Shown here: positions 14,758 through 36,282 of the stretch, piece after piece
Layout: every line of letters starts with the position of its first letter
Numbering within the stretch: position 1 is the stretch's first letter
Source: Clostridia bacterium
GTDB taxonomy: Bacteria > Bacillota > Peptococcia > Peptococcales > BICA1-8
Direction of reading: 5' to 3'
DNA length: 43,313 bases
Assembly (NCBI GenBank): GCA_012720075.1
Contig: JAAXZE010000204.1
Location: forward strand, 1-43,313
Program-made: the position numbers and the translations under genes
The notes under the pieces: generated by a model
The model's database searches: none
Seen by the model: the letters and a program-made list of their open reading frames with translations, nothing else
Told to the model about the DNA's origin: nothing

Positions 14758-14784
14758 GAAGGATTTGCCTTTTTTTTGAAGAAT
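14758..14784 (+). promoter_or_regulatory. Sigma-H-type promoter candidate upstream of the riboswitch
   Basis: GAAGGATTT-N11-GAAGAAT matches RnAGGAwww-N11/12-RnnGAAT. Confidence 0.5.
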
Positions 14785-14813
14785 AAGAAGAATGAAACTA
14801 TATTTCAGTTACG

Positions 14814-14913
14814 GCTCGCCGAGCCTATTATCTAAGTCCGGGCTGGAGGATATGGTTATAGGCCATTGTGGGTATAATGGGAAACTATTATGCCTCCTTT
14901 GGAAAAGGGGAGC
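14814..14913 (+). ncRNA. Moco RNA motif riboswitch, P3-less (Wco/Tuco-type) variant
   Basis: CCGAG; P2 CCUAU..UCUAAG..UAUGG..AUAGG; short linker; P4 GGGUAUAAUGG-GAAA-CUAUUAUGCCU; CCUUUGGAAAAGG; closing GCUC/GAGC. Confidence 0.8.
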
Positions 14914-14933
14914 GTTTTTATAGCGTTGTTTTG

Positions 14934-14965
14934 GGCTGACCTTTCCAAAGGTCAGCCTTATTTCT
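14934..14965 (+). terminator. Riboswitch expression-platform terminator
   Basis: GGCTGACCTT / AAGGTCAGCC + TTATTTCT; 14942-14951 is also complementary to aptamer 14896-14905. Confidence 0.75.
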
Positions 14966-15012
14966 CTGACTAAGGAAAAGATTGAGTATTTTTTATTAAG
15001 GCGGTGTGTACT

Positions 15013-17028
15013 ATGGGCAGTGCTACAAGGGATAGCCATGATAAAATCTATCTCCAATGGGAAAAGTTTATAAAATCCGGCGGGCAAGACCGATCCTTGG
15101 ATATTAGGGTCAAAATTTTGGAATCATGGAAAAGGTGCTTCCGTCAAAAAGTCGATCCCTATGATGAAAAAATCCACCGTTCTTTAAAGGGAAATAAACT
15201 AAATAAATTACTGCGGGATAATCAGTGGCTTATTGATATAGCTAAGCCCTTCATGGCCAATCTTCATAAGTTTGTTAAAGGGTCCGGTTTTGTGGTTGTG
15301 TTAACCGATGACAAGGGATATATTATGGAGTTGTTTACCGATGAAGGCACCAAACAAAACCCATTGACAAAAAATTTCTTTATCGGTGCCAGCTGGCGTG
15401 AAGAGGAAGCGGGTACTAATGCCATAGGAACGGCATTAGTTTTGGGGGAACCCATTCAAGTTTCCGGCGCGGAGCATTACTGTCAAAAACATCATTGTTT
15501 AACCTGTTCGGCTGCTCCCATTTTTGATACCAACGGAAAAATCATTGGTATTTTGGATATGTCGGGAGCATCCCATGCCGCTCATTTACATACCCTGGGA
15601 ATGGTTGTAGCAGCTGCCGAAGCTATTATGGCTCAGATTAAAATCAGACGGAAAAATTCCGAGTTAGCCTTAATAAACACCCGGTTGACCAATTTTTTTA
15701 ATATGGTATCTGACGGGGTTTTATTGGTTGACAAAGATGAAGTAGTAGTGGAATATAACCCAGCCGCCAAGGTTCTTCTGGGAAGGGAGAAACAAAACAT
15801 TATTGGAATTCCTGTTAAAAAACTGTTCGATTATCGTTCCTCGGTTCAAAGAGAGAAAATCGATATTAACCATCGTTACAGTGATGTAGAAATTATGGTT
15901 GAGACCAAGGATGGATTGTGTTGTTGCCTGGTTTCCGGTGAGCCTATCGTTAATGAGCGAGGTGAAGTGACCGGCGGTTTAATGATTTTGAGACCCATCA
16001 AACAAGTGCAAAATTTGGTCAATAGATTTAGTGGATATATGGCAGCTTTGGATTTTAATGATATTGTCGGAGAAAGCCCCGAAATACAGGAAGTTATTAG
16101 ACTGGCCAAATTAACCGCCAGTAGCAGTTCCAATGTTTTACTGCAGGGAGAAAGCGGGACCGGAAAAGAAATTTTTGCCCAAGCAATACACAATGGCAGT
16201 GAGCAAAGAAACGGACCGTTTATACCTGTTAATTGTGGAGCAATTCCCCGGGAACTGATTGGCAGCGAGTTATTCGGCTATGAAGAGGGAGCATTTACCG
16301 GGGCTAAAAGAGGCGGCAAGCCGGGAAAATTTGAATTAGCCAATGGCGGTACCCTTTTTCTGGATGAAATAGGGGATATGCCCTTAGATCAACAAACGGC
16401 TTTGCTCCGTGTAATACAAGAAAAAAAGGTAGCCCGTATCGGCAGTGACAAAATGATTCCCGTTAATGTTCGTCTGATATGTGCTACAAATAAAAATTTG
16501 CGCCAGGAAGTAGAAAAGGGAACTTTCCGGGAAGATTTGTTTTATAGACTGAATGTAATTTCTATTATAATTCCTCCATTGCGTAATCGGGTGTCGGACA
16601 TTCCATTGCTTTTTGAACATTTCTTACAAAAGTTGACCCGGGATTGGGGCTATAAATTTTATGTGGAACCGGAAGTGCTGGAATGTTTGAAGCGGTATTC
16701 CTGGCCGGGCAATGTAAGAGAATTGCAAAATATTGTGGAAAGGGCGGCCCTTCTGGCTGAAAACGGGATTATTACCGTTAGGAATTTACCTCCGGAGATT
16801 ATTGAGAGCTCCGGTCATTATTCATTGTCCTTGACATTAGCGAACTATTCCCACCAAAATATAAAATGCCGTCAAGAAAGACGGAAAACGGCCAATGAAA
16901 TAGAAAAATACAAAATTATTAATTTGCTAAACAGCTTTGGAGGTAATGTCAGTAAGGTCGCAAAAGAAATGGGGGTTTCCCGTAAAACCGTTTACAATAA
17001 GATGCGCATCTATTCCATCAAAAATTAA
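15013..17028 (+). CDS. Sigma-54-dependent activator, AcoR type (GAF-PAS-AAA+-Fis HTH)
   Basis: ILESWKRC, GTNAIGTAL, GESGTGKE, GAFTGA, LFLDEIGDM, WPGNVRELQN, C-terminal HTH; start ATG 15013 or GTG 15004. Confidence 0.93.
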   Translation: MGSATRDSHDKIYLQWEKFIKSGGQDRSLDIRVKILESWKRCFRQKVDPYDEKIHRSLKGNKLNKLLRDNQWLIDIAKPFMANLHKFVKGSGFVVVLTDDKGYIMELFTDEGTKQNPLTKNFFIGASWREEEAGTNAIGTALVLGEPIQVSGAEHYCQKHHCLTCSAAPIFDTNGKIIGILDMSGASHAAHLHTLGMVVAAAEAIMAQIKIRRKNSELALINTRLTNFFNMVSDGVLLVDKDEVVVEYNPAAKVLLGREKQNIIGIPVKKLFDYRSSVQREKIDINHRYSDVEIMVETKDGLCCCLVSGEPIVNERGEVTGGLMILRPIKQVQNLVNRFSGYMAALDFNDIVGESPEIQEVIRLAKLTASSSSNVLLQGESGTGKEIFAQAIHNGSEQRNGPFIPVNCGAIPRELIGSELFGYEEGAFTGAKRGGKPGKFELANGGTLFLDEIGDMPLDQQTALLRVIQEKKVARIGSDKMIPVNVRLICATNKNLRQEVEKGTFREDLFYRLNVISIIIPPLRNRVSDIPLLFEHFLQKLTRDWGYKFYVEPEVLECLKRYSWPGNVRELQNIVERAALLAENGIITVRNLPPEIIESSGHYSLSLTLANYSHQNIKCRQERRKTANEIEKYKIINLLNSFGGNVSKVAKEMGVSRKTVYNKMRIYSIKN

Positions 17029-17040
17029 GCTGCTTCCCTG

Positions 17041-17106
17041 AAAAAGTGTTACCTTAATGTAAAAAAAGTGTTACCAAATTTGCATTAAGGTAACACTTTT
17101 TTTACA
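17041..17106. promoter_or_regulatory. Upstream activator sequence (enhancer) candidate
   Basis: AAAGTGTTACC twice plus an inverted copy; perfect 18-bp IR at 17058-17075/17089-17106; ~110-175 bp upstream of the -24/-12 box. Confidence 0.7.
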
Positions 17107-17216
17107 ATTTTACTTTTAATTTATTAAGTGTTTATCCCATATTATTTTTTAAAAATTCAAACAAAATGCGGGGTTTTTGGGAGTGTTTATAATAACCCGC
17201 GGCTTTTTTTATTCAT

Positions 17217-17232
17217 TGGCACATTTTTTGCA
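17217..17232 (+). promoter_or_regulatory. Sigma-54 (-24/-12) promoter
   Basis: TGGCAC-ATTTT-TTGCA, exact consensus spacing, downstream of the bEBP gene. Confidence 0.9.
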
Positions 17233-17254
17233 TTTTTAAAATTATGGAATGACA

Positions 17255-17372
17255 AGTTTTCTTCTGCGTGGGATAACTTAATAGATCCTGCGGCTGAAAA
17301 AGAAATACGGTGCGTTAATTTTGTGCGGTTTTGTAGCAAAGCACTGGTTTCTTTTCGGTGCTTTGCTTTTTT
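17255..17372 (+). ncRNA. Structured leader/attenuator (possible Moco-II-like RNA) with terminator
   Basis: Hairpin 17267-17292 with loop AACUUAAUAG; terminator AGCAAAGCACUG/CGGUGCUUUGCU + U5 (17335-17372); competing pairing 17296-17313 with 17341-17356. Confidence 0.55.
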
Positions 17373-17439
17373 GGCTTTCGGAAAAATTCATTCTTATTTA
17401 AATTGTTTAGAAATCAACCGGAAAAGGAAGTGAAAAAAC

Positions 17440-18465
17440 ATGAAAGCAGTACCGGTATATGAGGCTGTGGGGATGATTCTTTGCCATGATATCACGGAGA
17501 TCGTGCCCGGCAAGGTAAAGGGGAGGGCCTTCAAAAAAGGTCATATTGTAAGACAGGAGGATATACCTAAGCTGCTAAATCTTGGCAAGGAAAGACTTTA
17601 TGTCTGGGAAATGAATGAAAACGTCATTCATGAAGATGAGGCAGCAATAAGGATCGCTAAGGCGGTTGCCGGGCCCGTGGTTAATATTACCGAGCCTTCC
17701 GAAGGCAAAGTGGAACTGAAATCAGACATTACCGGTTTGCTTAAAATTAATACTTTGGCTTTGGAGGAAATTAACGATATTAATGAGATTGTAGTAGCAT
17801 CAATTCATTCCAATCAAATGGTGAAAAAAGGGGAAAAATTAGCCGGCTGCCGGGTAGTTCCCTTGATCATAGATAAAAAGAAAATTGAAGAAGTAGAAAG
17901 AATCGCCCAGTTGTATTTTCCTTTGTTTGAGGTTAAACCATTGAAATCCTTCAAGGTTGGAGTGGTGACAACGGGAAGCGAAGTTTACCATGGACGGATC
18001 GAAGATAAATTTGGCCCTGTTATCAGAAGAAAGGTTGAGGAAATGGGCAGCCGGTTTTTAAGGCAAATTTTTGCCAACGATAACGTCACCATGATTGCTG
18101 AAGGGATTCAGCAGTTGATTAGTGAAGGGGCGGAGTTGATTATTACAACGGGTGGGATGTCCGTTGACCCCGATGATGTAACTCCTGCCGGTATTAGAGC
18201 TGCCGGCGGCAAAGTTGTGGTTTATGGCGCTCCGGTCCTTCCCGGTTCCATGTTTATGCTGGCTTATATCGATGATGTACCTGTTTTGGGTTTGCCTGGG
18301 TGTGTAATGTACCATAGAACAACGGTTTTTGACCTGATTTTTCCGCGGATATTAGCAGGGGAAAAAATAACCCGTAAGGATGTAACCCGCTTGGCCCATG
18401 GTGGTTTATGCAAGGTATGTGATCCTTGTACCTATCCCCATTGCTCCTTTGGAAAAGGTTATTAA
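17440..18465 (+). CDS. Molybdopterin-binding (MoeA/MoCF_biosynth-like) protein with Cys-rich tail
   Basis: LCHDITEI, VTTGSEVY, TTGGMSVDPDDVTP, GLPGCVMY, C-terminal CKVCDPCTYPHCSFGK. Confidence 0.85.
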   Translation: MKAVPVYEAVGMILCHDITEIVPGKVKGRAFKKGHIVRQEDIPKLLNLGKERLYVWEMNENVIHEDEAAIRIAKAVAGPVVNITEPSEGKVELKSDITGLLKINTLALEEINDINEIVVASIHSNQMVKKGEKLAGCRVVPLIIDKKKIEEVERIAQLYFPLFEVKPLKSFKVGVVTTGSEVYHGRIEDKFGPVIRRKVEEMGSRFLRQIFANDNVTMIAEGIQQLISEGAELIITTGGMSVDPDDVTPAGIRAAGGKVVVYGAPVLPGSMFMLAYIDDVPVLGLPGCVMYHRTTVFDLIFPRILAGEKITRKDVTRLAHGGLCKVCDPCTYPHCSFGKGY

Positions 18466-18519
18466 GTTTTTAAGGCATAATTGCCTTGAAAAGTAAAAAA
18501 TAAAAAAGGAGTTGAGAAA

Positions 18520-21346: not shown

Positions 21347-21435
21347 AAAAGAACAAATTTAGTCAGAAATTAGTTATGGTGAAAGGTTATCCAGAAGGAG
21401 TATTACCACCCATTAATAAAGAAAGGGGGAAAAAA

Positions 21436-23766
21436 ATGGATCAAAACTTGTTACGCCAGCGGGAAGCCAAGTGTGTTCAAGAAGAACCCCCTGGATGTAC
21501 TACTGCTTGTCCTGTCCATGTAGATGTTCGGGGAATAGTGGATGCCATTAGAAAAAATGATTATAAAACAGGTTTATTGTTATTCAATAAAGTGGTGCCT
21601 TTTCCGCGGATTATCAGCAGGATCTGCGACCAAGTTTGTCAAAAGGGCTGTAAGCGAAAGGAAATTGACGAGGCAATTGCTGTCAATGCTTTAGAAAGAA
21701 TTTGTGTTGATAACATGGGAGAACCCAAGGCCAGTTCTATGGCAATAAAAGCCAAAAAGGATAGGGTAGCGGTAATAGGCGGCGGCCTTAGTGGGTTAAC
21801 GGCCGCATTGGAATTGGCCAAAAAGGGGTATCTGGTAGTACTTTATGAAGCCACGGACCGTTTAGGAGGAAGCCTTTGGCATACTCCCGAAGAAAAACTG
21901 CCGCGGCGATTGATAGAAGATGATTTTATCCAACTCAAAAATAATCCTTTTATTGAAATAATCTACAACACCCCAATTAGCAATGACCGGAGCTCAAATC
22001 CCGCTTTTGACAGTATCTGCGCTGATTTTTCCGCAGTTTATTTAGGGATAGGTAGTAAAGAGGTCCTTTCTTTGAATTTAGGTCTTGATGTTGACCAAGA
22101 GGGCAAGGTGGTAATTGATCCCTTAACCTTGCAAACCAGTCATCCTAAAGTCTTTGCCGGCGGCAGCCTTTATCTTGGCGAAAAGGGAAAATCGCCTATA
22201 ACCTCCATATCCCATGGAAAAATTGCCGCCAATTCCATTGACAGACTTTTGCAAAAAGCTTCTTTAACGGCCAACCGGGATAAAGAAGGCAGCTATCCCA
22301 CCCTTCTTTATACTAATGTAAAGGGGATAGAACCCCAGGAAGCAGTAAAATGTTCAGACCCAATTAAGGGTTATAACAGGGAAGAGGCCTTAAAAGAGGC
22401 CCAACGCTGTATAATGTGTGAATGTCTGGAATGTGTAAAAGTTTGTGAATACCTGGCCCATTACCGTTCATATCCCAAACGTTATGTCCGGGAAGTATAT
22501 AATAACCTATCCATTGTAATGGGCATTCACCACGCTAATAAAATGATAAATTCCTGCAGCCTGTGCGGTTTGTGTGAAGAAGTGTGTCCCAACGGATTAA
22601 ATATGGGGGAAATATGCCAGGAAGCCAGGCGGATAATGGTAAAAAGAGGCAAGATGCCGCCATCGGCTTATGATTTTGCCTTAAGGGATATGGCTTTTAG
22701 CACCGGCGAAAAGTTTGTCTTAAATAAACATCAACCGGGTTTTAATGTTAGCAGAATGGTTTTCTTTCCAGGATGCCAGCTTAGTGGTTCATCTCCCCAG
22801 TATGTAAGAAAAATTTATAAATACCTCTGCGAAAAAATTGACGGTGGTGTCGGTCTCAGTCTGGGCTGCTGCGGTGCTCCCGCTGACTGGGCAGGTCAGG
22901 AAGAGTTATTTTCGGAAAACCTGGAAAATATCAAAAGTCGTTGGCTGGAGCTAGGAAAGCCGAAAATTATCACCGCTTGTCCTACCTGTTTCAAAATATT
23001 TAAGGAGCGGTTGCCCCAAGCAGAAGTGGATTATATTTGGCGTATTTTTGAACAGTATGGTCTGCCGCCCATGGCTAAGAGTGAACCTAGAAAACTGGTA
23101 ATCCATGATGCTTGTACGACCAGGCATGAAGACTGCTTGCATGAAAGCATTAGAAATATTTTGCTAAAATTAGGGCACCAAATAGAAGAACTGGAAAACA
23201 GTCGCCAGACTACCGGGTGTTGCGGCTACGGGGGATTAATGATGTTTGCCAACAGGGAGTTGGCTCAACAAGTGGTAGACCGGCGGATCAAGGAAAACCA
23301 GGCTGATTATCTGGTATACTGTGCCATGTGCCGGGATAATTTTGTCGCCCAAGGGAAAAAAACCTATCACCTGCTGGATTTAATTTTTGGAGAAAATGAA
23401 CAGGATCGTGCCCGGCAATTGGGACCGGATTTTTCTCAAAGGCATGAAAACAGGGCCAGGTGTAAGATTGCCTTCCTTAAGGAGATTTGGGGTGAAAATG
23501 TGGCTGAGGAGAAAATGGATATTAAGCTGATTATTCCTGAAGAAGCAAGAAGAATTTTAGACGACAGAAGAATTCTGATTGAAGACGTCGCTAAAGTCAT
23601 TCAGTATGCGGAAGAAACCGGCAATCGTTTAAAAGATACTTTGACCGGTCGTTATATTGCTTACTTTAAACCTGTTGCGGTAACTTACTGGGTGGAATAT
23701 TCTCCTCAGGAAGAGGGCTTTTTAGTGCATAACGCTTATAGTCATAGGTTGGAAATAAGTGGATAG
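21436..23766 (+). CDS. Fe-S flavoprotein: GltD-like N-terminus + ferredoxin dicluster + two CCG domains
   Basis: CTTACPVH, ICDQVCQKGC, IGGGLSG, CIMCECLECVKVC, CSLCGLCEEVCP, GCCG, GCCGYGG; RBS AGGGGG favours ATG 21436. Confidence 0.85.
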   Translation: MDQNLLRQREAKCVQEEPPGCTTACPVHVDVRGIVDAIRKNDYKTGLLLFNKVVPFPRIISRICDQVCQKGCKRKEIDEAIAVNALERICVDNMGEPKASSMAIKAKKDRVAVIGGGLSGLTAALELAKKGYLVVLYEATDRLGGSLWHTPEEKLPRRLIEDDFIQLKNNPFIEIIYNTPISNDRSSNPAFDSICADFSAVYLGIGSKEVLSLNLGLDVDQEGKVVIDPLTLQTSHPKVFAGGSLYLGEKGKSPITSISHGKIAANSIDRLLQKASLTANRDKEGSYPTLLYTNVKGIEPQEAVKCSDPIKGYNREEALKEAQRCIMCECLECVKVCEYLAHYRSYPKRYVREVYNNLSIVMGIHHANKMINSCSLCGLCEEVCPNGLNMGEICQEARRIMVKRGKMPPSAYDFALRDMAFSTGEKFVLNKHQPGFNVSRMVFFPGCQLSGSSPQYVRKIYKYLCEKIDGGVGLSLGCCGAPADWAGQEELFSENLENIKSRWLELGKPKIITACPTCFKIFKERLPQAEVDYIWRIFEQYGLPPMAKSEPRKLVIHDACTTRHEDCLHESIRNILLKLGHQIEELENSRQTTGCCGYGGLMMFANRELAQQVVDRRIKENQADYLVYCAMCRDNFVAQGKKTYHLLDLIFGENEQDRARQLGPDFSQRHENRARCKIAFLKEIWGENVAEEKMDIKLIIPEEARRILDDRRILIEDVAKVIQYAEETGNRLKDTLTGRYIAYFKPVAVTYWVEYSPQEEGFLVHNAYSHRLEISG

Positions 23767-23777
23767 GGGCGAGAAAG

Positions 23778-23984
23778 ATGAACAAAGAAAACAAGCAGCA
23801 AATTAATATTATTTGTGATAAATGCGGTATTCCTCTTACGCCGGGAAAGGTTACCTTATCCTATTTAGGCAGCAGTTTTCCTGTTGAACTGCCTAAATGC
23901 TCCCAATGCGGGCTGGTGTTTATCCCTGAAGAATTGGCCCGAGGCAAAATGGATCAGGTAGAAAAAGCGCTGGAAGATAAATAA
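23778..23984 (+). CDS. Small 2xCxxC redox/zinc-ribbon protein (DVU_1557-like)
   Basis: CDKC...CSQC, ends VEKALEDK; operon position. Confidence 0.82.
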   Translation: MNKENKQQINIICDKCGIPLTPGKVTLSYLGSSFPVELPKCSQCGLVFIPEELARGKMDQVEKALEDK

Positions 23985-24003
23985 TTGGGAGCGGTTAAGG
24001 TTT

Positions 24004-24684
24004 ATGAAACTTATAGACGGAGTTTTGCGTCCGGGGGGACTGGAAATTACCCAAAGACTTTTAGAATATTGCCAATTTAAATCCGGTGACAGGGTGGTTG
24101 ATTTAGGCTGCGGTGTAGGTACCACTGTGGAGTACCTCCGAAATGTCCATTGCCTGGAAGCAAGGGGTATTGATTTGTCCAAAGAAGCGGTGGAAGCGGG
24201 AAAAAATCGCTGTCCTGATTTGCCGTTAATAGAAGCTTCTGCTGAGGCACTGCCTTTTGTTAACCATTCCCTGGATGGTGTTCTGGCGGAATGCAGTTTA
24301 TCGGTAATGCAATATAATAGCAGGGTCCTGGCGGAAATTAATCGAGTTCTGGTAAAAGGGGGAAAATTGGCCGTTTCTGATTTGTATATTCGGGATGAAG
24401 GTACTCATTCACCATCATGGTTGGGAAAGGAAATTAATTGTCTGACCGGAGCAAAAAATTATGCTCAGTTAGAACAGATTTTAAAAAACCATAATTTTAA
24501 GATTTTGGTTTGGGAAGACCGGTCGGAATGCTTAAAAGAGTTTGTGGTTCGCTGCATAATGGAATACGGTTCAATAGAAGGATTTTGTCCATGGTGTTCC
24601 AAGGGGGATAACGACGGTCAGACTTCTCCCTTGAAAAAATCTTCAATAGGATATTTTTTGCTGGTGGCCCAAAAAACCGACTAA
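24004..24684 (+). CDS. Class I SAM-dependent methyltransferase (DVU_1556-like)
   Basis: LRPGGLEIT, VVDLGCGVG, AEALPF, LAECSLS. Confidence 0.87.
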   Translation: MKLIDGVLRPGGLEITQRLLEYCQFKSGDRVVDLGCGVGTTVEYLRNVHCLEARGIDLSKEAVEAGKNRCPDLPLIEASAEALPFVNHSLDGVLAECSLSVMQYNSRVLAEINRVLVKGGKLAVSDLYIRDEGTHSPSWLGKEINCLTGAKNYAQLEQILKNHNFKILVWEDRSECLKEFVVRCIMEYGSIEGFCPWCSKGDNDGQTSPLKKSSIGYFLLVAQKTD

Positions 24685-24732
24685 AGGCCTGAAATGGAAA
24701 ATTAAAGAGTATTGGGGAGGTAAGCGCGGACA

Positions 24733-25185: not shown

Positions 25186-25186
25186 T

Positions 25187-26248: not shown

Positions 26249-27363
26249 CGGCTTTAATATTAGCCGCCGGCTATTCATCACGAATGGGGGAGTTTAAACC
26301 TTTGCTTCCTTTAAACGGTGAACCGGTAATTGCCCGGACCGTTTCCTGTTTTCGTGCCGCAGGCATTACCGATGTTAGAGTTGTGGCAGGCTACCGGGCC
26401 AATGATTTATTGCCCCTATTGAATAGGTTGGGAGTAAAAACAATAATTAATGAAAAATTTGATTGCGGCATGTTTTCTTCAGTCCTGACCGGTCTACAGA
26501 CTTTTGACAGTGAGCTGGAAGGTTTCTTTTTAATGCCCGGGGACATACCCCGGGTTAAAAGTCAGACCATAGAGACACTTATTGCAAAATATAAACAGTC
26601 CGACTACCGTGTTTTTTATCCCACATATCAAGGCAGGCGGGGTCATCCCCCTTTAATTACCAGGCCTTGCTTTAGCCGGATTTCGGCCCAGGATTATTCC
26701 GGAAACCTGCGCTTGGTGCTGCAGGAATTTGAAAATGAGTCTTGTGATGTTGAATGTACTGATGAAGGGGTTTTAATGGATATGGATACCCCGGAAGACT
26801 ATCAAAAAATTATCGGGGCGGCATTAAAAAATAAGATACCGACAGTTTCCGATTGTCAGCGGTTGTTCTCCCGGTATCAAGTGCCCGAAGGGATAATGAG
26901 GCACGGCCGGGCTGTAGCCGATGGAGCCCAAAAAATAGCCCGGCATTTGAATGAACGGAGAGGCTTTATGCTGGATATTGAGCTCATAACTGCCGCCGGG
27001 CTGCTCCATGATATTGCCAAGGGCCAGCCCAACCATGCTCAAAAGGGGGCAGCCATTCTTGTGGAAGAAGGTTTTCCGGCTGTGGCCCAGGTAGTAGAGG
27101 CCCATATGGACTTAAGTATCGATTATGGGAAGGACCATCCAATAGATGAAAAAGCGATTATTTACTTAGTAGATAAAATTATTCACCAAGAAGATATTGG
27201 AAGTATTGAAGGACGATTTTCTAAGGCTTTTGAAAAATATGCTGACAATGAAGAAATTCTGCAAAATATTAAAAAGAGACAAGAACAGGCCCTTTTTCTT
27301 AAAGAGAGAATTGAAGATTTATTAGATATTGAAAATTTATATTCGTTTTTAGCAAAAAAATAG
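26230..27363 (+). CDS. MocA-like NTP transferase fused to an HD domain (DVU_1551-like)
   Basis: LILAAGYSSRMG..KPLL, MPGDIP, GHPP, DMDTPEDY; then RHG...LLHDIAK. Confidence 0.88.
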   Translation: MSKEKLAALILAAGYSSRMGEFKPLLPLNGEPVIARTVSCFRAAGITDVRVVAGYRANDLLPLLNRLGVKTIINEKFDCGMFSSVLTGLQTFDSELEGFFLMPGDIPRVKSQTIETLIAKYKQSDYRVFYPTYQGRRGHPPLITRPCFSRISAQDYSGNLRLVLQEFENESCDVECTDEGVLMDMDTPEDYQKIIGAALKNKIPTVSDCQRLFSRYQVPEGIMRHGRAVADGAQKIARHLNERRGFMLDIELITAAGLLHDIAKGQPNHAQKGAAILVEEGFPAVAQVVEAHMDLSIDYGKDHPIDEKAIIYLVDKIIHQEDIGSIEGRFSKAFEKYADNEEILQNIKKRQEQALFLKERIEDLLDIENLYSFLAKK

Positions 27364-27409
27364 TTTTGTCTCTGAAAACAGGCCAAGTTTTTTATAAAGG
27401 AGTAAAGCT

Positions 27410-28798
27410 ATGGCAAAAGAGATCATTTTGGGAAATACCGAAAGTGTTTGCCCCCAATGCTTAAAAAGGATTCCTGCTCAAAAGGTTATTGTTGGTGCAG
27501 ACGTATATTTAACAAAAGAATGTCCGGAGCACGGCAAATTTCGGGTTCTGATTTGGAAGGGCAGTGAGCCGCCTTATGCTGATTGGGCCAATACAAAGGT
27601 GCCTGCAGCACCAAAAGTGTGTTTAACCAAAGTTGAGCAGGGTTGCCCCTTTGATTGTGGTCTTTGTCCGGAGCATCGGCGGGATACTTGCTGCTTGCTG
27701 CTGGAGGTGACTAAGGGTTGTAACCTCCATTGTCCCATTTGTTTTGCCGATGCCGATAAGGCTTGTGACAGCGACCCCGATTTGCAGGAAATTGAAAGCT
27801 GGTATAAAAGCCTATCAGAAAACGGTCTTCCTTATAATATTCAGATTTCCGGAGGGGAACCAACCGTAAGGGATGACTTGCCCCAAATAATTAAGCTTGG
27901 CCGGAAATATGGTTTTTCTTACATCCAGTTAAATACCAACGGTTTGCGGATGGGACGTGAACCCCGTTTTGTAAAACAGCTTAAGGAGGCCGGTCTAAGC
28001 TCCGTATTTTTGCAGTTTGACGGAACTAATGATGAAATTTATAAACAAATACGGGGGAAGGCTTTATTGGATGTAAAAACTGCGGCCGTGGAAAACTGCG
28101 CTAAAGAGGGGATTGGGGTAGTTCTTGTGCCCACCCTGGTTCCCGGTGTTAATATGGATAATATCGGAGAGATTATCAACTTTGCTGTTTCCTGTATGCC
28201 TGCTGTAAGAGGAGTCCATTTTCAGCCCATAAGCTATTTCGGCCGTTATCCCATGAGTCCTCCAGAGACCCGAATAACCATCCCGGAAATATTACGAGCT
28301 ATCGAAAATCAGACTAACGGTAAAATTAAGGCCGCCAATTTTCTGCCCCCTGGAGCGGAAAATGCCTACTGCTCTTTTCACGGCAATTTTATTTTAACTG
28401 AAGAAGGAGAACTTAAACCCTGGAACTCTTTGCAATCCGGTAAATCATGTTGTCAGCCTATAGATGCCAGAGAAGGGGTAAATAAATCCAGGGATTTTGT
28501 GGCAAGACAATGGGCGGGTCCCGGAAATCCGACTTTGGAAAACGGCTGTGGCTGCTCCTGCCCAAATCAAATAGATGAGTTGTCTGAAATAAATGTGGAT
28601 AGTCTGGATCGGTTTTTGACCCGGGTTCGGGATTTTACCCTGGCTATTTCGGGAATGGCCTTCCAGGATGCTTGGTCCCTGGATCTGGACCGCCTGCGGG
28701 ACTGCATTGTTCATGTCTTTAGTGCTGATAAAAGAATTATTCCTTTTTGCGCTTATAATCTAACGGCGCAAAACGGCAACAGCCTTTATCGTAAATAG
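27410..28798 (+). CDS. trsS: Radical SAM protein (TrsS-like, Cys form)
   Basis: CNLHCPIC, SGGEPT, NTNG; N-terminal CPQC, CPEHG, CPFDCGLCPEH; C-terminal IIPFCAYN. Confidence 0.85.
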   Translation: MAKEIILGNTESVCPQCLKRIPAQKVIVGADVYLTKECPEHGKFRVLIWKGSEPPYADWANTKVPAAPKVCLTKVEQGCPFDCGLCPEHRRDTCCLLLEVTKGCNLHCPICFADADKACDSDPDLQEIESWYKSLSENGLPYNIQISGGEPTVRDDLPQIIKLGRKYGFSYIQLNTNGLRMGREPRFVKQLKEAGLSSVFLQFDGTNDEIYKQIRGKALLDVKTAAVENCAKEGIGVVLVPTLVPGVNMDNIGEIINFAVSCMPAVRGVHFQPISYFGRYPMSPPETRITIPEILRAIENQTNGKIKAANFLPPGAENAYCSFHGNFILTEEGELKPWNSLQSGKSCCQPIDAREGVNKSRDFVARQWAGPGNPTLENGCGCSCPNQIDELSEINVDSLDRFLTRVRDFTLAISGMAFQDAWSLDLDRLRDCIVHVFSADKRIIPFCAYNLTAQNGNSLYRK

Positions 28799-28808
28799 AG
28801 GTGGAGTA

Positions 28809-30146
28809 ATGGAAATTAAGGAAATGGCCCCTATATCCCTTGATAACTGGATCAAGGAAAAGATAGGTTTTAACACCGAAAGGATTTCCCTGCAGGATAT
28901 AAAAGAATATCAATTAAAGAAGATAAGGCAAACCATTGATTATGTTTGCCAAAACAGCACCTTTTATCGTAAGCGTTTAGAGGGTTATTCGGGTCAGAGT
29001 CTAAACCGGTTGGACGATTTGGCAAAACTCCCCTTTACCTATCCTCAAGATTTAAGGAGTAACGCTCTGCAAATGCTCTGTGTGTCCCAAAGTGATATTG
29101 AGCGGGTAGTCACCCTTGATAGTTCCGGTACAACCGGGGAGCCAAAAAGATTATATTTTACCGCCGATGATCAGGGGTTAACCGTTGATTTTTTTATGCA
29201 GGGCATGTCTCTCTTGACTTCTCCGGGGGAACGGGTTTTAATCCTTTTACCCTGTGAACGGCCCGGGGGCATTGGAGATTTATTATTTAAGGCTTTGGTG
29301 CGGCTGGGTGCCGAACCTATAAAGCACGGTCCGGTGACCGGTTTGTCTGATGCTCTGCAGAAACTATCCGAAACCCGGGCTTCCGTTTTGGTGGGCATAC
29401 CGATTCAAGTATTAGCTTTGGCCAAATATTGGCAATTAAAAGAGAGCACAATTCCTTTGAACCTTAAACGAATGGTGCTAAGCACTGATTATGTTTCCCA
29501 GGCGGTTATTCAGGAAATCAAGAGAATTTGGGGCAGTGAGGTTTTCCGATATTATGGAATGACCGAGATGGGACTGGGGGGAGGCATCGAATGCCGGCAT
29601 CATCAAGGCTATCATTTGTATATGGGGGATTTTGTCTTTGAGATTGTCGATCCCCTTACAGGAGATGTTTTACCTCCTGGGCAATATGGTGAAGTTGTTT
29701 TTACTACCCTGACCAGGAGAGGAATGCCTCTGGTGCGATACCGCACCGGAGATATCTCGCGGTTTCTGCCCGGAAACTGCCCGTGTGGTTCGGTATTGCC
29801 CAGGCTGGATAATATCAAGGCCAGAAAAACGGGAATGGTTAAACTGACTGAGGATAGTTTTATCACAATAGCCCAATTGGATGAAATTTTGCTGGCTGTA
29901 CCCGGAGTTATTGATTTTACCGCAGTTGTTTCCAATCTTCCCGGAAAGCCGACTTTGGAAATAGAATTAATAATGTTGGACCGGAACATTGATCAATGGC
30001 AAGTTATAAATGAACTTTGCCAAACTGAGCCAATTGGAAGGGCATACTTAAAAGGAGCGCTGAAACTAAATCTAAAAGCAACCTATTATTCCGAAAAGAC
30101 CGTACTTCAAACCGGAAAAAGAACCATCAAAGTATTAACATCTTAG
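28809..30146 (+). CDS. PaaK-like AMP-dependent CoA ligase (DVU_1553-like)
   Basis: SSGTTGEPK, YGMTE, RYRTGD, CPCG. Confidence 0.87.
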   Translation: MEIKEMAPISLDNWIKEKIGFNTERISLQDIKEYQLKKIRQTIDYVCQNSTFYRKRLEGYSGQSLNRLDDLAKLPFTYPQDLRSNALQMLCVSQSDIERVVTLDSSGTTGEPKRLYFTADDQGLTVDFFMQGMSLLTSPGERVLILLPCERPGGIGDLLFKALVRLGAEPIKHGPVTGLSDALQKLSETRASVLVGIPIQVLALAKYWQLKESTIPLNLKRMVLSTDYVSQAVIQEIKRIWGSEVFRYYGMTEMGLGGGIECRHHQGYHLYMGDFVFEIVDPLTGDVLPPGQYGEVVFTTLTRRGMPLVRYRTGDISRFLPGNCPCGSVLPRLDNIKARKTGMVKLTEDSFITIAQLDEILLAVPGVIDFTAVVSNLPGKPTLEIELIMLDRNIDQWQVINELCQTEPIGRAYLKGALKLNLKATYYSEKTVLQTGKRTIKVLTS

Positions 30147-30166
30147 ACTAAGACAAGGGTGATTAC

Positions 30167-30805
30167 ATGGACCAAAAAACCATTTATCTGGTCAGGCATG
30201 GAAAAATTAAAACAGATACCCAAAGGTGTTATATCGGCCAAATTGATTTACCCTTAACCGGGGAAGGTTTTCAGCAGGCAAAAGCTTTAAGCAATAAATT
30301 GGGCCGGCTTAAAATTGAGGCCGTGTATTCCAGTGACTTGTCCCGTTCCAGGGATACCGCCAAAGAAATAGCTCTGAAGCATGGGTTGATTCCTCAGGAA
30401 AGAGCCGATTTGCGGGAAATTAGTTTGGGCAAATGGGAAGGGGTGACTTTTGCCGAAGTATCAACCCGTTATCCGGAAGAATTTAAACGGCGCGGGGAAG
30501 ATATCGGGTATTTCAGACCGCCGGGGGGAGAAAGTTTTGCCGATTGCAGCCAAAGAATAGTGGCTGCTTTTCAGGACATCCTGAAAACACCCTTTCAAAA
30601 TATTGTGATAGTCGGTCATGCCGGAATAAACCGGGTATTGATTTGTCATGTGCTGGGACTGCCTTTGGACAATCTTTTCAGGATATCCCAAGATTATGGC
30701 TGCTTAAATGTAATAATTGCCGGAAAATTTGGTTATCGGTTAAAGCTGCTTAATGCGCCGGTCTTTTCAAAAGAGACTGTAAATGAAAATCAAGAGGAAG
30801 GATGA
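30167..30805 (+). CDS. Histidine phosphatase (CobC/PGM family)
   Basis: LVRHG, SSDLSR, LREISLGKWEG, GGES, VGHAG. Confidence 0.9.
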   Translation: MDQKTIYLVRHGKIKTDTQRCYIGQIDLPLTGEGFQQAKALSNKLGRLKIEAVYSSDLSRSRDTAKEIALKHGLIPQERADLREISLGKWEGVTFAEVSTRYPEEFKRRGEDIGYFRPPGGESFADCSQRIVAAFQDILKTPFQNIVIVGHAGINRVLICHVLGLPLDNLFRISQDYGCLNVIIAGKFGYRLKLLNAPVFSKETVNENQEEG

Positions 30806-30810
30806 AAAAT

Positions 30811-30972: not shown

Positions 30973-30990
30973 AAGGGAGGGTTAAGGAAA

Positions 30991-31756: not shown

Positions 31757-32797
31757 GTGGTGAGTCTGAAAAGAATTGTTTTTTTATTAACAGTTATTAT
31801 TATCTTTTCCGGTTGTGCTAATAATTTTGTAAAAGATTTAGAGTTCAGGGAAAAAACAGGATTAGGAAAAAGTAATGGGAGTCAAGACGGGATAACCATT
31901 TCCTATACCGATCAAATTACTGCGCAATGGATTGCTTCACCCCATGCCAAACCATTGGCAGCTACCGTTGGGAGAGACGAATGTATTAGGTGTCATGATG
32001 GCATGGCTTTTGCCCTCAAAATTGGACAAGCTCAAGACTTGGCTGCCAGTACGGGGCAGGATTGTTTGACTTGTCATTCTGGTTATGGAAGCCAATTAAA
32101 AGTCAGAGAGGTAATTGATATACCTGTAAAAAAGGATTTTATCGCAGGTATGGGAGCATTGTGCAGCAGTTGCCATAATAGTAATGGTGTGCCTGATATT
32201 AATGATCCCAGAAGGCCTTATCCCCATTATGGTCCTCAGGCTGATGTTTTGACCGGCTTTGGTGGCATCAGGGAAGCGGAGGACGTTCAGTATAATAATA
32301 CCTATGGGCATATCAGCTTGAGTGAAAGTTGTATTGACTGCCATATGCCTAAAAATAAAGAAGGTTTTATCACCCATACTTTTACAATGGAGCCGGAAAA
32401 TGCTGAGTTAGTCTGTGCCTCCTGCCATAATGGTGCCAAGGATTTTAATATTAAAGCCAAAATGGATTATGACGGAGACGGACTGATTGAGGGTTTGCAG
32501 GACGAGGTCTTGGAACTAATGGATATTTTAGAGGAAGCCATTAGAGCGGAATTAGGGGGCGGTTCCTTCGTGGCCTCCAGAGGTGTATTTCAGTTTTATG
32601 ATAACGAAGGAAAACTGCTGGAACAGGTTCCAAATAAGGTTTATCTTGCTGCCTATAATTATTATCTTATTAAGAATGACGGCAGTAAGGGCATTCATAA
32701 TCCATTGTTTGTCGTCCAACTCTTACAACAGTCTTATAAATCTTTGACCGGAAGGGATGTACCCGGTGCCGGTCTAGTACGGGATATTGGAGAGTGA
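31757..32797 (+). CDS. Pentaheme c-type cytochrome lipoprotein
   Basis: Lipobox IFSG-C; five CxxCH (CIRCH, CLTCH, CSSCH, CIDCH, CASCH); DYDGDG loop; DGSKGIHNP. Confidence 0.88.
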
Positions 32798-32801
32798 GCT
32801 G

Positions 32802-34550
32802 ATGAACAATCTAAGAAGAATTTTTGATGGAAATTTAATAATTAAATTATTGGTTCCCTTTATAATAGTTCTGTTTGTGTCTACCTTTTGCGGAGTGTAT
32901 TTAATTATTGATTTTTTAAATAGTAAACCTATAGATCAAGAAATCAGCAGGCTGAGAAGTATATCTCTCCAGTTGCAATCCATCTGGGATAACATGGAGG
33001 ACAGTCAACTGCATATCTTAAGACAATCCAACATAAATGCCTATAATGCCGGAAATATAGTCATGTATGATGCCCTGGCTACCGTTGAAAGATTTTCTGA
33101 AAAAATGCAAGCGGAGAATACCACTGTCAGGATTAGCGCCCCGGAACCCTTAAATACTGAAAATATCACTGATGAGTGGGAAAACAGCGTTGTGCAAGCC
33201 TTTAGAGAAAATAGGGAACTCCTTGACGGCAGCGAGATTATTAATGACGGAGAGCATACTTATTTAAGATATGCCATGCCTATTGAGCTGAAAAGTTCTT
33301 GTTTGTCTTGTCATAGCGGCAGTGCCGGTGATATTTACGGTGTGTTTAGTTTAACCACTTCCTTGGATTCCATAATCAGTCAGACTAAGATGATTACATA
33401 TTCAGTATTTGGAGGGGGAATTTTAATAATTCTTCTACTGGCATTCTTCATGTGGTTTATTTCCCGAAGGGTAATTAATAAACCTTTAGCGGATATAAAT
33501 AAGCAATTAGTGGAAATGAACTCCGGGGAGGGGGACCTAACCTATAGGTTAGTTGTCAAATCGGAAGACTTAATAGGCAGGATAGGTTTGGAATTTAATA
33601 GATTTTTAGAGTATCTGCAAAAAATGATCCTTAAAATCAACAGTTCTTCCCATGAGTTGGAAAAGGTGGCCGGCAATATTTCTTCCAGTATTGTGGAGAC
33701 CAGAAAAATATTAGCGAAAAATGCGGAACAAGTTGAAGCCCTCGCCAAGATTTCCTCTACTGTTGCTGATAATCTGCAGGAAGTACAGCGAGGTTCTGAA
33801 GAGGTGGCCAACAGTGCTTCGCAAATCTCTGTTTTGACCCAGGAATGTTTTAATGAAGCTGACAGTGTTCGGGAAGAGGCCGAAGAATCCGGACAGGGCA
33901 TGGAAGCCGTAGTTTCATCGGTTGAGGAAGTCAATCATAAGGTAAATCAATTAGAAGCGGTTTTTGAAATGCTTAATCAATCCTTTAACAAAATTTCCGG
34001 TTTTGTAACGGAAATTAATCAAATAGCATCCCAAACAAATCTTTTAGCCTTAAATGCCGCCATTGAAGCTTCTCGCGCCGGCGAACCCGGGCGGGGTTTT
34101 GCGGTTGTTGCAGAAGAAGTAAGAGAATTAGCAGAGCTTTCAGAAAAATCTGCCAGAGAAATTTCAATCATTATTGGCGAGCTTGGAGAAAAAACCAGGA
34201 TGGCCAATGATTATTTGAAAGTGTCCAGTAAAGCTGTAGAGAGCAGCCGCGAAAAGGTGGAAAATGTACAAAGGATGCTAAAATCCATTATCAATAGGAT
34301 TGCCCAAATAACAACAAGAATACAAGGAATAAGTGCTGCTTCCCAAGAACAGACTGCTTTGAGTGAGGAGATTACTGCAGCCATTACCGAAGTAACTAAG
34401 TTCAGTAATGAAACTGCGGCTTCCTCAGAACAGTTTAACTATTCCATACAGCAGCAATTACAATCAATTCAGGGCATTGAAGGAGAAGTTCTGGAACTAG
34501 AAAAAGTAGCCAAAACCGTTTTGGGGATGATAAACAAATTTAAAGTTTAA
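32802..34550 (+). CDS. Chemoreceptor with extracytoplasmic heme-c sensor domain (DUF3365/Tll0287-like)
   Basis: TM - P.N..N..D.WE - [15 protein letters not shown] - TM - HAMP - MCP tip; start ATG 32802 or TTG 32787. Confidence 0.87.
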
Positions 34551-34573
34551 TTTTATCTTGCTAGAAAAAACTA

Positions 34574-34602
34574 TTGCTATTTATTAAATATTATAATATT
34601 AT
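34574..34602 (+). promoter_or_regulatory. Sigma-A promoter candidate
   Basis: TTGCTA-17 bp-TATTAT just upstream of the riboswitch. Confidence 0.45.
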
Positions 34603-34625
34603 ATACTTGCAAACTTAATTTAATG

Positions 34626-34717
34626 TCTCCGAGGTTGTAACTCTAAGGATAATAATCTATGAGCTGCAATCATGGGTTTCTCCGGAAACGGAGAAGCCTC
34701 CCATAATGGAAAGGAGA
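34626..34717 (+). ncRNA. Moco RNA motif riboswitch, P3-less (Wco/Tuco-type) variant
   Basis: P1 UCUCC/GGAGA; CCGAG; P2 GGUUGUAACUC-UAAG..UAU-GAGCUGCAAUC; 2-nt linker; P4 GGGUUUCUCCG-GAAA-CGGAGAAGCCU; CCCAUAAUGGAAAGGAG. Confidence 0.88.
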
Positions 34718-34743
34718 AGTATAGCATATCGTCCTCCTCACCC

Positions 34744-34767
34744 TCTCCTTTTAGGAGAATTTTTTTT
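34744..34767 (+). terminator. Riboswitch expression-platform terminator
   Basis: TCTCCT-TTT-AGGAGA then A and T8; TCTCCTTT is also complementary to aptamer AAAGGAGA (34710-34717). Confidence 0.65.
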
Positions 34768-34857
34768 GCACCGATTTTTTTAATTAGGAGGGAAGAGATA
34801 GAAAGAAAATTGATTTTTTGAGGGATAATAAAATATCATTTAGTGGGGTGTGGTAAA

Positions 34858-36282
34858 ATGAAAAATTATATGATGTATATTGGCGGTCAATGGGTTGACA
34901 CAGCTAATAAAAAAGAAGTAATCAACAAATATACCGGTGAGCCTTTTGCCACTATAGCTCAGGCCAGTTTAGAAGACGTTGAGAAGGCTGTAAAATCTGC
35001 CAAGAATTCTTTCAATACGGTAAAATTAAGCCCCTATCAACGTTATGAAGTATTATATAAAACAAGCAGGCTGTTACTGGAACGCAAAGAAGAACTGGCC
35101 CAAATACTCTGCCTGGAGGTTGGAAAGCCCATCGGCGATAGCCGTGTTGATGTGGAAAGAGCGGCTCAGACATTTGAAATAGCTGCTGAAGAAGCCAAAA
35201 GAATTCATGGAGAAATGGTACCGGTTGAAGCAACGCCCGGTTCGGAAAACAGAATGGCTTTTACAATCCGGGTGCCTGTTGGAGTGGTTTGTGCCATAAC
35301 TCCCTTTAACGTACCTCTAAATCTTGTTGCCCATAAAGTGGCTCCGGCCATTGCCGCCGGTAATACTGTTGTATTGAAGCCTACCCAGGAAACTCCCATA
35401 GTAGCCGCTAAGCTTGTGGAATTAATGTTGGAAGCCGGTTTGCCCAAAGAACATATTAATTTAATATATGGAAGCGGCTCGGTTATCGGTGAAGCATTGC
35501 TGCAAAACCAAGATATAAACTTTTATAGCTTTACCGGAAGTCCTGCAGTAGGAGAAAGAATTAAACAGGTTATTGGTTTAAGAAAATGCACATTAGAGTT
35601 AGGAAGTAACTCCGCGGTAATAGTTCACGAAGATGCTCCGGATATTAAAAAAGCCGCTGTCTTGTGTGCCCAAAGAAGTTTTGCCAATGCAGGACAGGTA
35701 TGTATATCGGTGCAAAGGATTTATGTTCATGAAAATATTTATGAACAATTCTTAAATGAGATGAAAACCTATACCGAAACTTTAGTAGTCGGTGACCCAA
35801 TGGATGAAAGAACAAGTGTCGGTCCAATGATAAGTGAAAAAGAGGTGGAAAGAATTGACCAATGGGTTAAGGAGGCCATCCAACAAGGTGCCAAACTTGT
35901 GACCGGAGGGGAAAAAGTTGGTACACGGTTATATAAACCGACAATTTTAAGTGATGTTAAGAAGGATATGAAGGTTGTTTGTATGGAAACCTTTGCCCCC
36001 ATTGCCGTTGTTGTTCCATATAAAGATATTGATGAAGCCATTGCTTATACCAATGATTCCGAGTTTGGTCTACAAGCCGGGATTTTCACCTCCAGTCTCA
36101 ATATTGCTATGAAGGCCGCAAAAGAAATACAAACCGGCGGGGTAATTATCAATGATACCTCCATGTATCGGGCCGATGCAATGCCTTACGGCGGAGTTAA
36201 GAAGAGCGGCACCGGTAAAGAAGGACCCAAATATGTAATTGAGGAAATGACTGAGGAGAAAATTATTGTATTCAACCTTTAA
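34858..36282 (+). CDS. NAD(P)+-dependent aldehyde dehydrogenase
   Basis: ITPFNVP, LKPT, FTGS, LELGSNS (Glu), NAGQVCIS (Cys), ETFAP, PYGGVKKSGTGKEG. Confidence 0.93.
   Translation: MKNYMMYIGGQWVDTANKKEVINKYTGEPFATIAQASLEDVEKAVKSAKNSFNTVKLSPYQRYEVLYKTSRLLLERKEELAQILCLEVGKPIGDSRVDVERAAQTFEIAAEEAKRIHGEMVPVEATPGSENRMAFTIRVPVGVVCAITPFNVPLNLVAHKVAPAIAAGNTVVLKPTQETPIVAAKLVELMLEAGLPKEHINLIYGSGSVIGEALLQNQDINFYSFTGSPAVGERIKQVIGLRKCTLELGSNSAVIVHEDAPDIKKAAVLCAQRSFANAGQVCISVQRIYVHENIYEQFLNEMKTYTETLVVGDPMDERTSVGPMISEKEVERIDQWVKEAIQQGAKLVTGGEKVGTRLYKPTILSDVKKDMKVVCMETFAPIAVVVPYKDIDEAIAYTNDSEFGLQAGIFTSSLNIAMKAAKEIQTGGVIINDTSMYRADAMPYGGVKKSGTGKEGPKYVIEEMTEEKIIVFNL

Follow-up and report, generated by a model that had tools for sequence, protein, structure and literature searches.

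The closest described systems to the RNA leaders studied here are riboswitches of the Rfam family RF01055 (Molybdenum/Tungsten riboswitch aptamer). The molybdenum cofactor (Moco) riboswitch of E. coli moaA has a P3 stem and targets the ribosome-binding site of a biosynthesis operon (PMC2408646). In the same paper, Regulski et al. 2008 correlated RNAs without P3 with tungsten use, the criterion being host tungsten markers (tupA/tupB, wtpA and tungsten enzymes). They speculated that P3-less RNAs before the molybdenum sulfite-oxidase genes of S. wolfei repress when the tungsten cofactor (Tuco) rises, and suggested that Tuco may repress molybdenum enzymes where a tungsten route exists (PMC2408646). 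Here, we analyse two RNAs of this kind, RS1 and RS2, in a stretch of 43,313 nt (the window) from Clostridia bacterium GCA_012720075.1, contig JAAXZE010000204.1, forward strand, positions 1-43,313. RS1 precedes the gene of a sigma-54 activator, followed by the operon of a molybdenum-dependent aldehyde oxidoreductase (Mo-AOR), and RS2 precedes a gene for an aldehyde dehydrogenase (ALDH). The P1, the P2 with its receptor, the P4 with a GAAA loop and the P5 of the E. coli riboswitch and the P3-less subclass (PMC2408646) recur in both, and so, by prediction, does the OFF logic. Unlike moaA, RS1 and RS2 have no P3, are terminator-based and target a sigma-54 activator and an ALDH.

In Eubacterium limosum all five RF01055 RNAs lack P3, and two operons of the terminator type rose under tungsten limitation (PMC11725836, 2024). 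In that species the class targets WOR1, tupABC, two iron transporters and focA, with sequestor/antisequestor designs for wor1 and tupABC and a terminator with poly-U in fetABC1 and focA. RS1 and RS2 share with these RNAs the family, the missing P3, the terminator with poly-U and a regulon that extends beyond cofactor genes. The accessible part of that paper describes no ALDH, no aldehyde oxidoreductase (AOR) of the xanthine-oxidase family, no transcription factor under such an RNA and no logic of isozyme substitution.

Cobalamin riboswitches before B12-independent isozymes resemble the present proposal in that a cofactor RNA represses a cofactor-free equivalent, while the RNA class and the cofactor differ. 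Examples of such isozyme genes under cobalamin riboswitches are metE and nrd. PMC3766115 gives cobalamin riboswitches a category 'Isozymes of B12-dependent enzymes', and its main text places MOCO targets only in the cofactor biosynthesis and Mo/W transport categories. We found no publication that places an RF01055-class RNA before an ALDH, a xanthine-oxidase-family AOR or a sigma-54 activator; the supplementary tables of PMC2408646, PMC11725836 and PMC3766115 may list such genes. New are these three kinds of target gene, whereas the RNA class, the subclass and the idea of substitution were already known. An initial annotation of this DNA had held the logic of enzyme replacement to be undescribed for the class, which is too strong, as repression of molybdenum enzymes by Tuco was already suggested in 2008 (PMC2408646).

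We propose that RS1 and RS2 are P3-less Moco/Tuco termination OFF switches that jointly gate the activator with its AOR operon and the ALDH by cofactor supply, a reading to which we give an even chance. When the pterin cofactor, most likely in its tungsten form Tuco, is plentiful, the aptamer would close, the downstream hairpin and U-tract would form, and transcription would end before the gene. RS1 would control the synthesis of the activator, which would be needed at the -24/-12 promoter of the 13-kb Mo-AOR operon. This operon would require both a low cofactor signal and the effector sensed by the GAF-PAS module of the activator, while RS2 would directly control a monocistronic, cofactor-free NAD(P)+ ALDH. 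Scarce Tuco would raise two tungsten-independent routes of aldehyde oxidation and plentiful Tuco would lower both.

Two P3-less aptamers followed by terminators

Aptamers were detected with cmscan against Rfam 15 at gathering thresholds, the cut-off of RF01055 being 36 bits. The scan of the whole window returned three matches, one T-box and two RF01055, see Table 1. Both RF01055 hits align to the full model, positions 1-135, were found again in a whole-genome search, and enclose the two Moco-motif RNAs that had initially been placed at 14814-14913 and 34626-34717. The P3 stem, said to be missing from both, is indeed absent: its columns (model 62-76) are deleted in the cmscan alignments, RS2 keeping none of them and RS1 only 'AUU'. 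P1 pairs 14815-14820 with 14907-14912 in RS1, and 34626-34630 with 34713-34717 in RS2. Besides P1, the two RNAs retain P2 with the CUAAG...UAUG receptor bulge, the GAAA-capped P4, P5 and the CCUCC...GGAAAGG core. The sequences of P2 and P4 vary among RS1, RS2 and a third copy of the genome, located before moeA, with the pairing maintained in each.

RF01055 was also searched in 151 genomes, i.e. the host assembly (G000; 2.64 Mb, 206 contigs, 98.5% complete, 40% G+C) and 150 relatives. This gave 174 matches in 61 of the 151 genomes, 150 of the matches being listed. We analysed 146 hits, the 143 listed from relatives and three from G000; five listed hits at contig ends, with no DNA downstream, were left out. 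None of the 146 has a length between 127 and 131 nt, and P3 status in the survey was assigned by hit length, giving 105 P3-less and 41 P3-containing (P3+) hits. RS1 (122 nt) and RS2 (118 nt) are on the short side of the gap. They are genuine members of the known RF01055 class and of its P3-less subclass, with a common expression platform.

Both aptamers are followed by a terminator that is a complete hairpin, lies wholly outside the aptamer and uses no aptamer nucleotide; the tail of the RS1 hairpin is TATTTCTC / UAUUUCUC. The initial annotation was right about a terminator after each aptamer. Its competition with the aptamer 3' end was not borne out, as the two do not overlap and could interact only indirectly, via a possible antiterminator. 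For RS1 a candidate antiterminator is AAAGGGGAGC:GCUGACCUUU, with -10.5 kcal/mol, a value reached by 83 of 500 shuffles. In the unconstrained fold of RS2 the aptamer segment AAAGGAGA (34710-34717) pairs with the terminator segment UCUCCUUU (34744-34751) as an antiterminator, and this duplex has -11.7 kcal/mol (reached by 133 of 500 shuffles). Among orthologous leaders, the pairing is above shuffles for the activator of the relative G119 (5/500) and the ALDH of the relative G004 (8/500), and not for the leader of a third relative, G006 (92/500).

A stand-alone terminator after the aptamer is present in 3/3 ALDH leaders and in 2/2 activator leaders. This layout recurs in 14 of 18 P3-less TupA-like leaders, in 7/7 MobA-like leaders and in 11/14 P3-less MoeA/MoCF leaders. 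Since feedback repression is expected for these three groups and the layout is shared, we infer OFF polarity for RS1 and RS2. By architecture and analogy, the classification of both as OFF switches is well supported but not proven.

In unconstrained folds of the leaders of tungsten-dependent AOR (W-AOR) genes in relatives, the Shine-Dalgarno (SD) sequence pairs with the aptamer CCUCC or with the 5' strand of P1, and its probability of being unpaired is 0.05-0.33 in the full fold vs 0.60-0.73 for the downstream piece alone. Our proxy for the bound state cut into a possible SD-sequestor hairpin (ACCUUUAAA:UUUGGAGGU in the fold of G003). The idea that these leaders are ON switches was set aside and is not used as evidence, since an SD-sequestor model and an SD:CCUCC model both fit. 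Three W-AOR leaders were scored with a separate terminator, but in no fewer than two cases (G043, G048) the call reflects a U run beside the start codon and is regarded as false.

RNA-library contigs from four digester metatranscriptomes reach the RS2 aptamer from the side of a gene for a methyl-accepting chemotaxis protein (MCP), from the MCP 3' end, and give no cover over 14700-16033. As such contigs show neither starts, ends nor levels, we draw no conclusion on termination from them. The region immediately 5' of RS2 (31757-34550) comprises a multihaem cytochrome c gene and this MCP gene, which carries a Tll0287-like sensor; the two overlap at the start of the MCP gene.

The activator, the Mo-AOR operon and the aldehyde dehydrogenase

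Table 1. Positions of the riboswitches, their leaders and their predicted targets in the window.
Feature	Position	Strand	Score or remark
Sigma-70-like hexamers TTGAAG-17-TATATT, directly 5' of RS1	14776-14804	+	consensus scan, 9/12; a consensus match alone
RS1 aptamer, RF01055, P3-less	14805-14926	+	51.9 bits, E 1.1e-09
RS1 terminator-like hairpin	14933-14958, U-rich tail to 14966	+	11 pairs, -16.4 kcal/mol
Sigma-54 enhancer-binding activator, GAF-PAS-AAA+-HTH_8, 674 aa	15004-17028	+	PF00158 238.9 bits; GAF, PAS, HTH_8
Enhancer-like repeats, GTGTTACC twice direct and inverted GGTAACAC	17046-17096		upstream of the sigma-54 promoter
Putative sigma-54 promoter TGGCAC-N5-TTGCA, TGGCACATTTTTTGCA	17217-17232	+	between activator gene and AOR operon
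Conserved 5' leader	17296-17375, terminator-like hairpin 17335-17367	+	no Rfam family
Molybdopterin-binding (MoCF_biosynth) protein, first gene of the operon	17440-18465	+	PF00994 83.6 bits
MOP-type molybdopterin-dependent AOR, xanthine-oxidase family, 918 aa	18520-21276	+	NF045668 equivalog, 1666 bits (cut-off 1100)
Remainder of the operon	21376-30805	+	NF045663 flavo/FeS oxidoreductase, methyltransferase, C_GCAxxG_C_C, XdhC, DVU_1551-family NTP transferase (MocA-like + HD), radical SAM TrsS, DVU_1553-family CoA ligase, histidine phosphatase
Sigma-70-like hexamers TTGCTA-17-TATTAT, 5' of RS2	34574-34602	+	consensus scan, 9/12
RS2 aptamer, RF01055, P3-less	34615-34732	+	72.3 bits, E 1.1e-15
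RS2 terminator hairpin UCUCCU/AGGAGA	34744-34758, U8 at 34760-34767	+	6 pairs
NAD(P)+ ALDH, monocistronic	34858-36282	+	PF00171 533 bits, profile 1-460 of 461

The gene behind RS1 encodes a sigma-54 enhancer-binding protein, whose best NCBIfam match is a DhaR-like family, under its cut-off. The promoter between this gene and the AOR operon is the sole perfect match to TGGCAC-N5-TTGCW in the window; with at most one mismatch, two sites were found vs 1.15 expected. In the orthologous intergenic regions of G006 and G119 the same enhancer repeats are found upstream, with TGGCAT-N5-TTGCT at the equivalent place, and rpoN is present in G000 (a Sigma54_DBD gene on contig C35). The perfect -24/-12 site, the repeats kept in G006 and G119 and the presence of rpoN agree with the initial placing of the first riboswitch 5' of the activator of the operon. 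On the evidence of sequence, the regulator under RS1 is the activator of the Mo-AOR operon. The termination mechanism, with RS1 acting OFF through this activator cascade, is well supported but not proven.

An open reading frame (ORF) of 101 aa without family match at 17128-17433 holds both the promoter and the conserved leader; for this reason it is probably not a gene.

The conserved leader has the consensus GAAAAAGRAAUACRGUG, about 20 nt, a 13-bp hairpin GCAAAGCRCUG.../...GCUUUGC and a U run. It lies downstream of the sigma-54 promoter (in G004, of the riboswitch terminator) and ahead of the gene that opens the operon. The pattern occurs in 4 of the 151 genomes, the other three being G004 (L009), G006 (L011) and G119 (L008), and always 5' of the AOR operon. 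Rfam at E≤1 on 17030-17450 gave chance-level matches alone. A CRGUGC upstream in the block is able to pair with the 5' arm of the hairpin, and the leader may be a second attenuator.

The operon starts with a MoCF_biosynth gene, homologues of which are frequent first genes behind both P3-less and P3+ RF01055 hits. The AOR itself carries two [2Fe-2S] domains and MoCoBD_1/2 according to Pfam, has XdhC and a MocA-like NTP transferase encoded nearby, and is predicted to be a molybdenum enzyme. The locus corresponds to the cluster of MOP-type AORs, with five NCBIfam equivalogs above cut-off (NF045668, DVU_1551, DVU_1553, TrsS and NF045663). It differs from this cluster in its sigma-54 promoter and in the riboswitch on the activator gene, while two relatives, G004 and G133, have the riboswitch directly at the head of the operon. 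The operon is syntenic with those of G006 and G004. The MoCF and AOR genes (17.4-21.4 kb) are spanned by the metatranscriptome contigs at an identity of at least 99%; since these do not show levels, starts or ends, they indicate only the presence of the operon in RNA libraries. The radical SAM gene of this DVU_1551/1553-type cluster (27410-28798) matches the NCBIfam equivalog 'radical SAM (seleno)protein TrsS' with 674 bits.

The gene behind RS2 had been described as a metal-free NAD(P)+ ALDH, and its near-complete PF00171 profile, 3' of RS2, bears this out. The ORF list starts it at GTG 34843; the likely start is ATG 34858, and alignments of orthologues begin at residues 5-6. The best NCBIfam match is lactaldehyde dehydrogenase, with 531.6 bits vs a cut-off of 650, and the enzyme stays below the cut-off of every substrate-level model. 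G000 has seven PF00171 matches, of which the ALDH of the window is the strongest by far. On its 3' side are a terminator-like site (36778-36803) and genes on the opposite strand.

Conservation of the links and targets of the class in relatives

Among the 151 genomes, the closest ALDH orthologues are those of G004 (84% identity), G006 (80%) and G119 (76%). In G004 and G006 a P3-less riboswitch is located directly 5' of the orthologue, so that the link between riboswitch and ALDH exists in three genera of the family. In G004 a second P3-less riboswitch lies 99 nt from this unit and is oriented divergently; the ferredoxin gene that follows it has 87% identity to the one 5' of a W-AOR in G003, and the contig ends before a further gene.

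We also scanned ALDH loci using one genome per species, and all 52 loci encoding relatives of the enzyme were checked with Rfam. A riboswitch is located 5' in four of the 52: contigs of G004 and G006, a Desulfotomaculum isolate and a metagenome-assembled genome of Halobacteroidaceae. The Desulfotomaculum isolate (L189) has tandem P3-less copies at 471-589 and 626-742, both with a terminator of their own, in front of a DUF3870 gene and an ALDH of 55% identity. In the Halobacteroidaceae genome the riboswitch abuts a fragment resembling the C-terminus of the ALDH. L222 (1384-1701) has a P3-less riboswitch directly adjoining a segment that matches ALDH residues 401-473 with 68% identity and lacks an open frame; this may be the deleted remnant of a riboswitch-ALDH unit. 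Extra aptamers suggested by a regex scan at the ALDH loci L183, L214 and L215 were not confirmed by Rfam.

Orthologues of the Mo-AOR (E≤1e-150) are found in 31 of the 151 genomes, and four of these link it to a riboswitch. In G000 and G119 the link is via the activator, and in G004 and G133 a P3-less copy directly precedes the MoCF-AOR genes. In G087 a P3+ copy is located 5' of an AOR paralogue with 47% identity. The orthologues in G006 (87%) and G131 (84%) have no riboswitch.

To survey the targets of the class, the first downstream gene was taken as an ORF of at least 100 aa within 700 nt, which was missing for eight of the 146 hits. First genes were clustered, and cluster representatives were named by NCBIfam or Pfam. 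A TupA-like gene comes first for 18 P3-less vs 2 P3+ hits, a W-AOR for 10 vs 0 and a ferredoxin followed by a W-AOR (Fer4+W-AOR) for 3 vs 0, i.e. 13 vs 0 for both W-AOR classes together. For MobA-like genes the counts are 0 vs 7, for WtpA/ModA-like genes 6 vs 4 and for MoeA/MoCF genes 14 vs 14. G119 holds both classes, with P3+ copies before modA-like and moeA operons and a P3-less copy before the AOR activator. This pattern agrees with the tungsten proposal of 2008 and with the E. limosum study of 2024. The link of P3-less RNAs with tungsten, on which the initial annotation built, is thus strengthened by the first genes and by the published tungsten-limitation data for E. limosum (PMC11725836). 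To judge from these associations, the ligand of the subclass is likely Tuco.

Some relatives show other targets. G132 has 17 RF01055 matches (L092, L094, L119, L129 and others), and of its P3-less copies three precede MCP genes and two PAS-GGDEF genes, an unusual regulon for the class. P3-less riboswitches also precede sulfite-oxidase-fold (Oxidored_molyb) genes in L103 (G105) and L111 (G132), the same exception as in S. wolfei. In G099 (L013, 7752-7868 and 7937-8053) tandem P3-less riboswitches are located before a [FeFe]-hydrogenase-like gene.

Cofactor equipment and alternative readings

All three RF01055 hits of G000 are P3-less. The third heads an operon moeA / moeA-PBP / moaA / mobB-moaC / MOSC-moaB. 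On its contig (C126, L033; 3450-5354) a MoeA fused to PBP_like (PF12727) stands beside a plain MoeA, a pair found downstream of riboswitches in many relatives, P3-less and P3+ alike. A P3+ riboswitch before the mobA orthologue of G000 (C164), lost at the contig edge, was considered and rejected, there being no aptamer motif in the 174 nt upstream.

The more specific reading is that the two RNAs form a Tuco riboswitch regulon for metal-dependent isozyme substitution in aldehyde oxidation, in which low Tuco would de-repress the ALDH directly and the Mo-AOR via the activator as an AND gate. We hold this tentatively, as a possibility that falls somewhat short of even. If it is true, the class would reach beyond the synthesis and transport of its own cofactor, and aldehyde oxidation or detoxification would be redistributed among tungsten-dependent, molybdenum-dependent and cofactor-free enzymes, in one case through a transcription factor and not an enzyme gene. 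It would be the first case in the Moco/Tuco class of the 'B12 riboswitch-metE' logic, and would explain at the RNA level how anaerobes switch between tungsten- and molybdenum-dependent aldehyde oxidoreductases by metal supply. Tungsten availability would become a testable regulator of aldehyde metabolism in Peptococcales of anaerobic digesters, and the leaders would be simple reporters for whether P3-less aptamers distinguish tungsten from molybdenum. If the reading is wrong, what remains are two well-formed riboswitches of a known class whose target genes had not been listed before.

Several observations weigh against these readings. At the level of the leaders, the antiterminator duplexes of RS1 and RS2 are no better than compositional shuffles, and the RS1 terminator stays formed in the unconstrained fold. 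A reciprocal switch cannot be demonstrated either; as the W-AOR leaders of relatives are ambiguous in polarity, we claim no reciprocal regulation. At the level of conservation, no riboswitch is found at the close ALDH orthologues of G119 and L172 (77%), nor at the activator orthologues of G006 (75%) and G001 (69%). The AOR-family domain AFOR_N does not discriminate the P3 class, being present in 42 of the 48 genomes with P3-less hits and in 9 of the 10 with only P3+ hits.

The same holds for the host and its relatives. G000 has a ModA (TIGR01256, above cut-off), four DMSO-reductase-family and two xanthine-oxidase-family enzymes. No match to TupA (NF041772) or WtpA was found in this assembly of 206 contigs, from which genes may be missing; the strong PBP hits are PstS (the best PBP_like_2) and ModA, and the weak ones are LysR regulators. 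The single AFOR_N gene of G000 is located on C119 in a TctABC-ferredoxin operon, lacks a riboswitch and shares 31-35% identity with those W-AORs of relatives that are under riboswitch control. Of the genomes that share the links, G004 (94% complete) has three AFOR_N and one TupA-like match and G119 (100% complete) six and two, while G133 (99% complete) and G006 (85% complete) have none of either.

The tungsten enzymes, whose absence would have counted against the initial annotation, are represented by one AFOR_N gene, tupA and wtpA were not found, and the tungsten equipment is meagre. Its wider claim, a backup regulon under tungsten limitation, keeps the RNAs, the targets, the tungsten link and the conservation on its side. 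It is weakened by the thin tungsten equipment of G000 and by the genomes free of tungsten markers that share the links, and also by the orthologues without a switch. We regard such a backup regulon as reasonable but unproven.

Among the alternatives, the one that survives best is that the ligand is not specific to tungsten, so that P3-less aptamers here respond to Mo-molybdopterin (Mo-MPT), to the cofactor with either metal or to the whole pool of free pterin cofactor, and serve the housekeeping of the cofactor pool. Housekeeping control is suggested by the make-up of the AOR operon, whose first gene encodes a molybdopterin-binding protein and which also includes genes for XdhC and a MocA-like cytidylyltransferase; in that case, the ALDH would back up pterin-dependent aldehyde oxidation in general. 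G000 fits this view in that it has no P3+ copy yet possesses ModA and six predicted Mo/W pterin enzymes, with the whole molybdopterin (MPT) operon under a P3-less RNA. It is also consistent with the P3-less RNAs of G133 and G006, with the equal split of MoeA/MoCF first genes, MoCF_biosynth homologues coming first after both types, and with the sulfite-oxidase-fold genes behind P3-less hits. However, turning a molybdenum enzyme off at plentiful Moco makes little sense, targets differ sharply where both classes occur in one genome (G119), TupA-like and W-AOR targets are almost all P3-less, and the published tungsten-limitation data on P3-less RNAs point to tungsten (PMC11725836). We consider this alternative unlikely, at perhaps one chance in a few.

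Less probable still is that the switches are evolutionary leftovers of a lineage that lost tupABC and the riboswitch-controlled W-AOR operon and has little or no Tuco, with empty aptamers and expression that is constitutive save for the effector of the activator. Such a loss would match the missing TupA and WtpA, and no orthologue of the Fer4+W-AOR operon known from G003, G004 and G007 was found in G000. It would also match the small genome, 2.64 Mb vs 2.7-4.5 Mb in the riboswitch-bearing genomes of the family, and, weakly because the contigs show no levels, the RNA-library cover of the MoCF and AOR genes. However, both aptamers are well above the cut-off with intact cores and terminators, and a third copy still stands at the head of the MPT operon. 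ModA-type transporters may carry tungstate (PMC2408646), and the fragmented assembly may lack genes. We find decay of this kind improbable.

Very improbable, finally, are ON switches, in which cofactor binding would permit read-through: for the AOR operon it would be reasonable to make the apoenzyme only in the presence of its cofactor, and the RS1 unconstrained fold is OFF by default, but the terminators are complete without aptamer nucleotides, so a closed aptamer cannot prevent them, the same layout stands at the head of tup and moe operons, and a cofactor-free ALDH would gain nothing from such a switch.

DNA runs labelled anaerobic digester, sediment, leachate and mixed-culture metagenome contained at least half of the words sampled from the window. 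The T-box of the window (2574-2834, minus strand, 137 bits) is located 5' of a class I/II aminotransferase gene (1379-2509, minus strand), and not of a tRNA synthetase.

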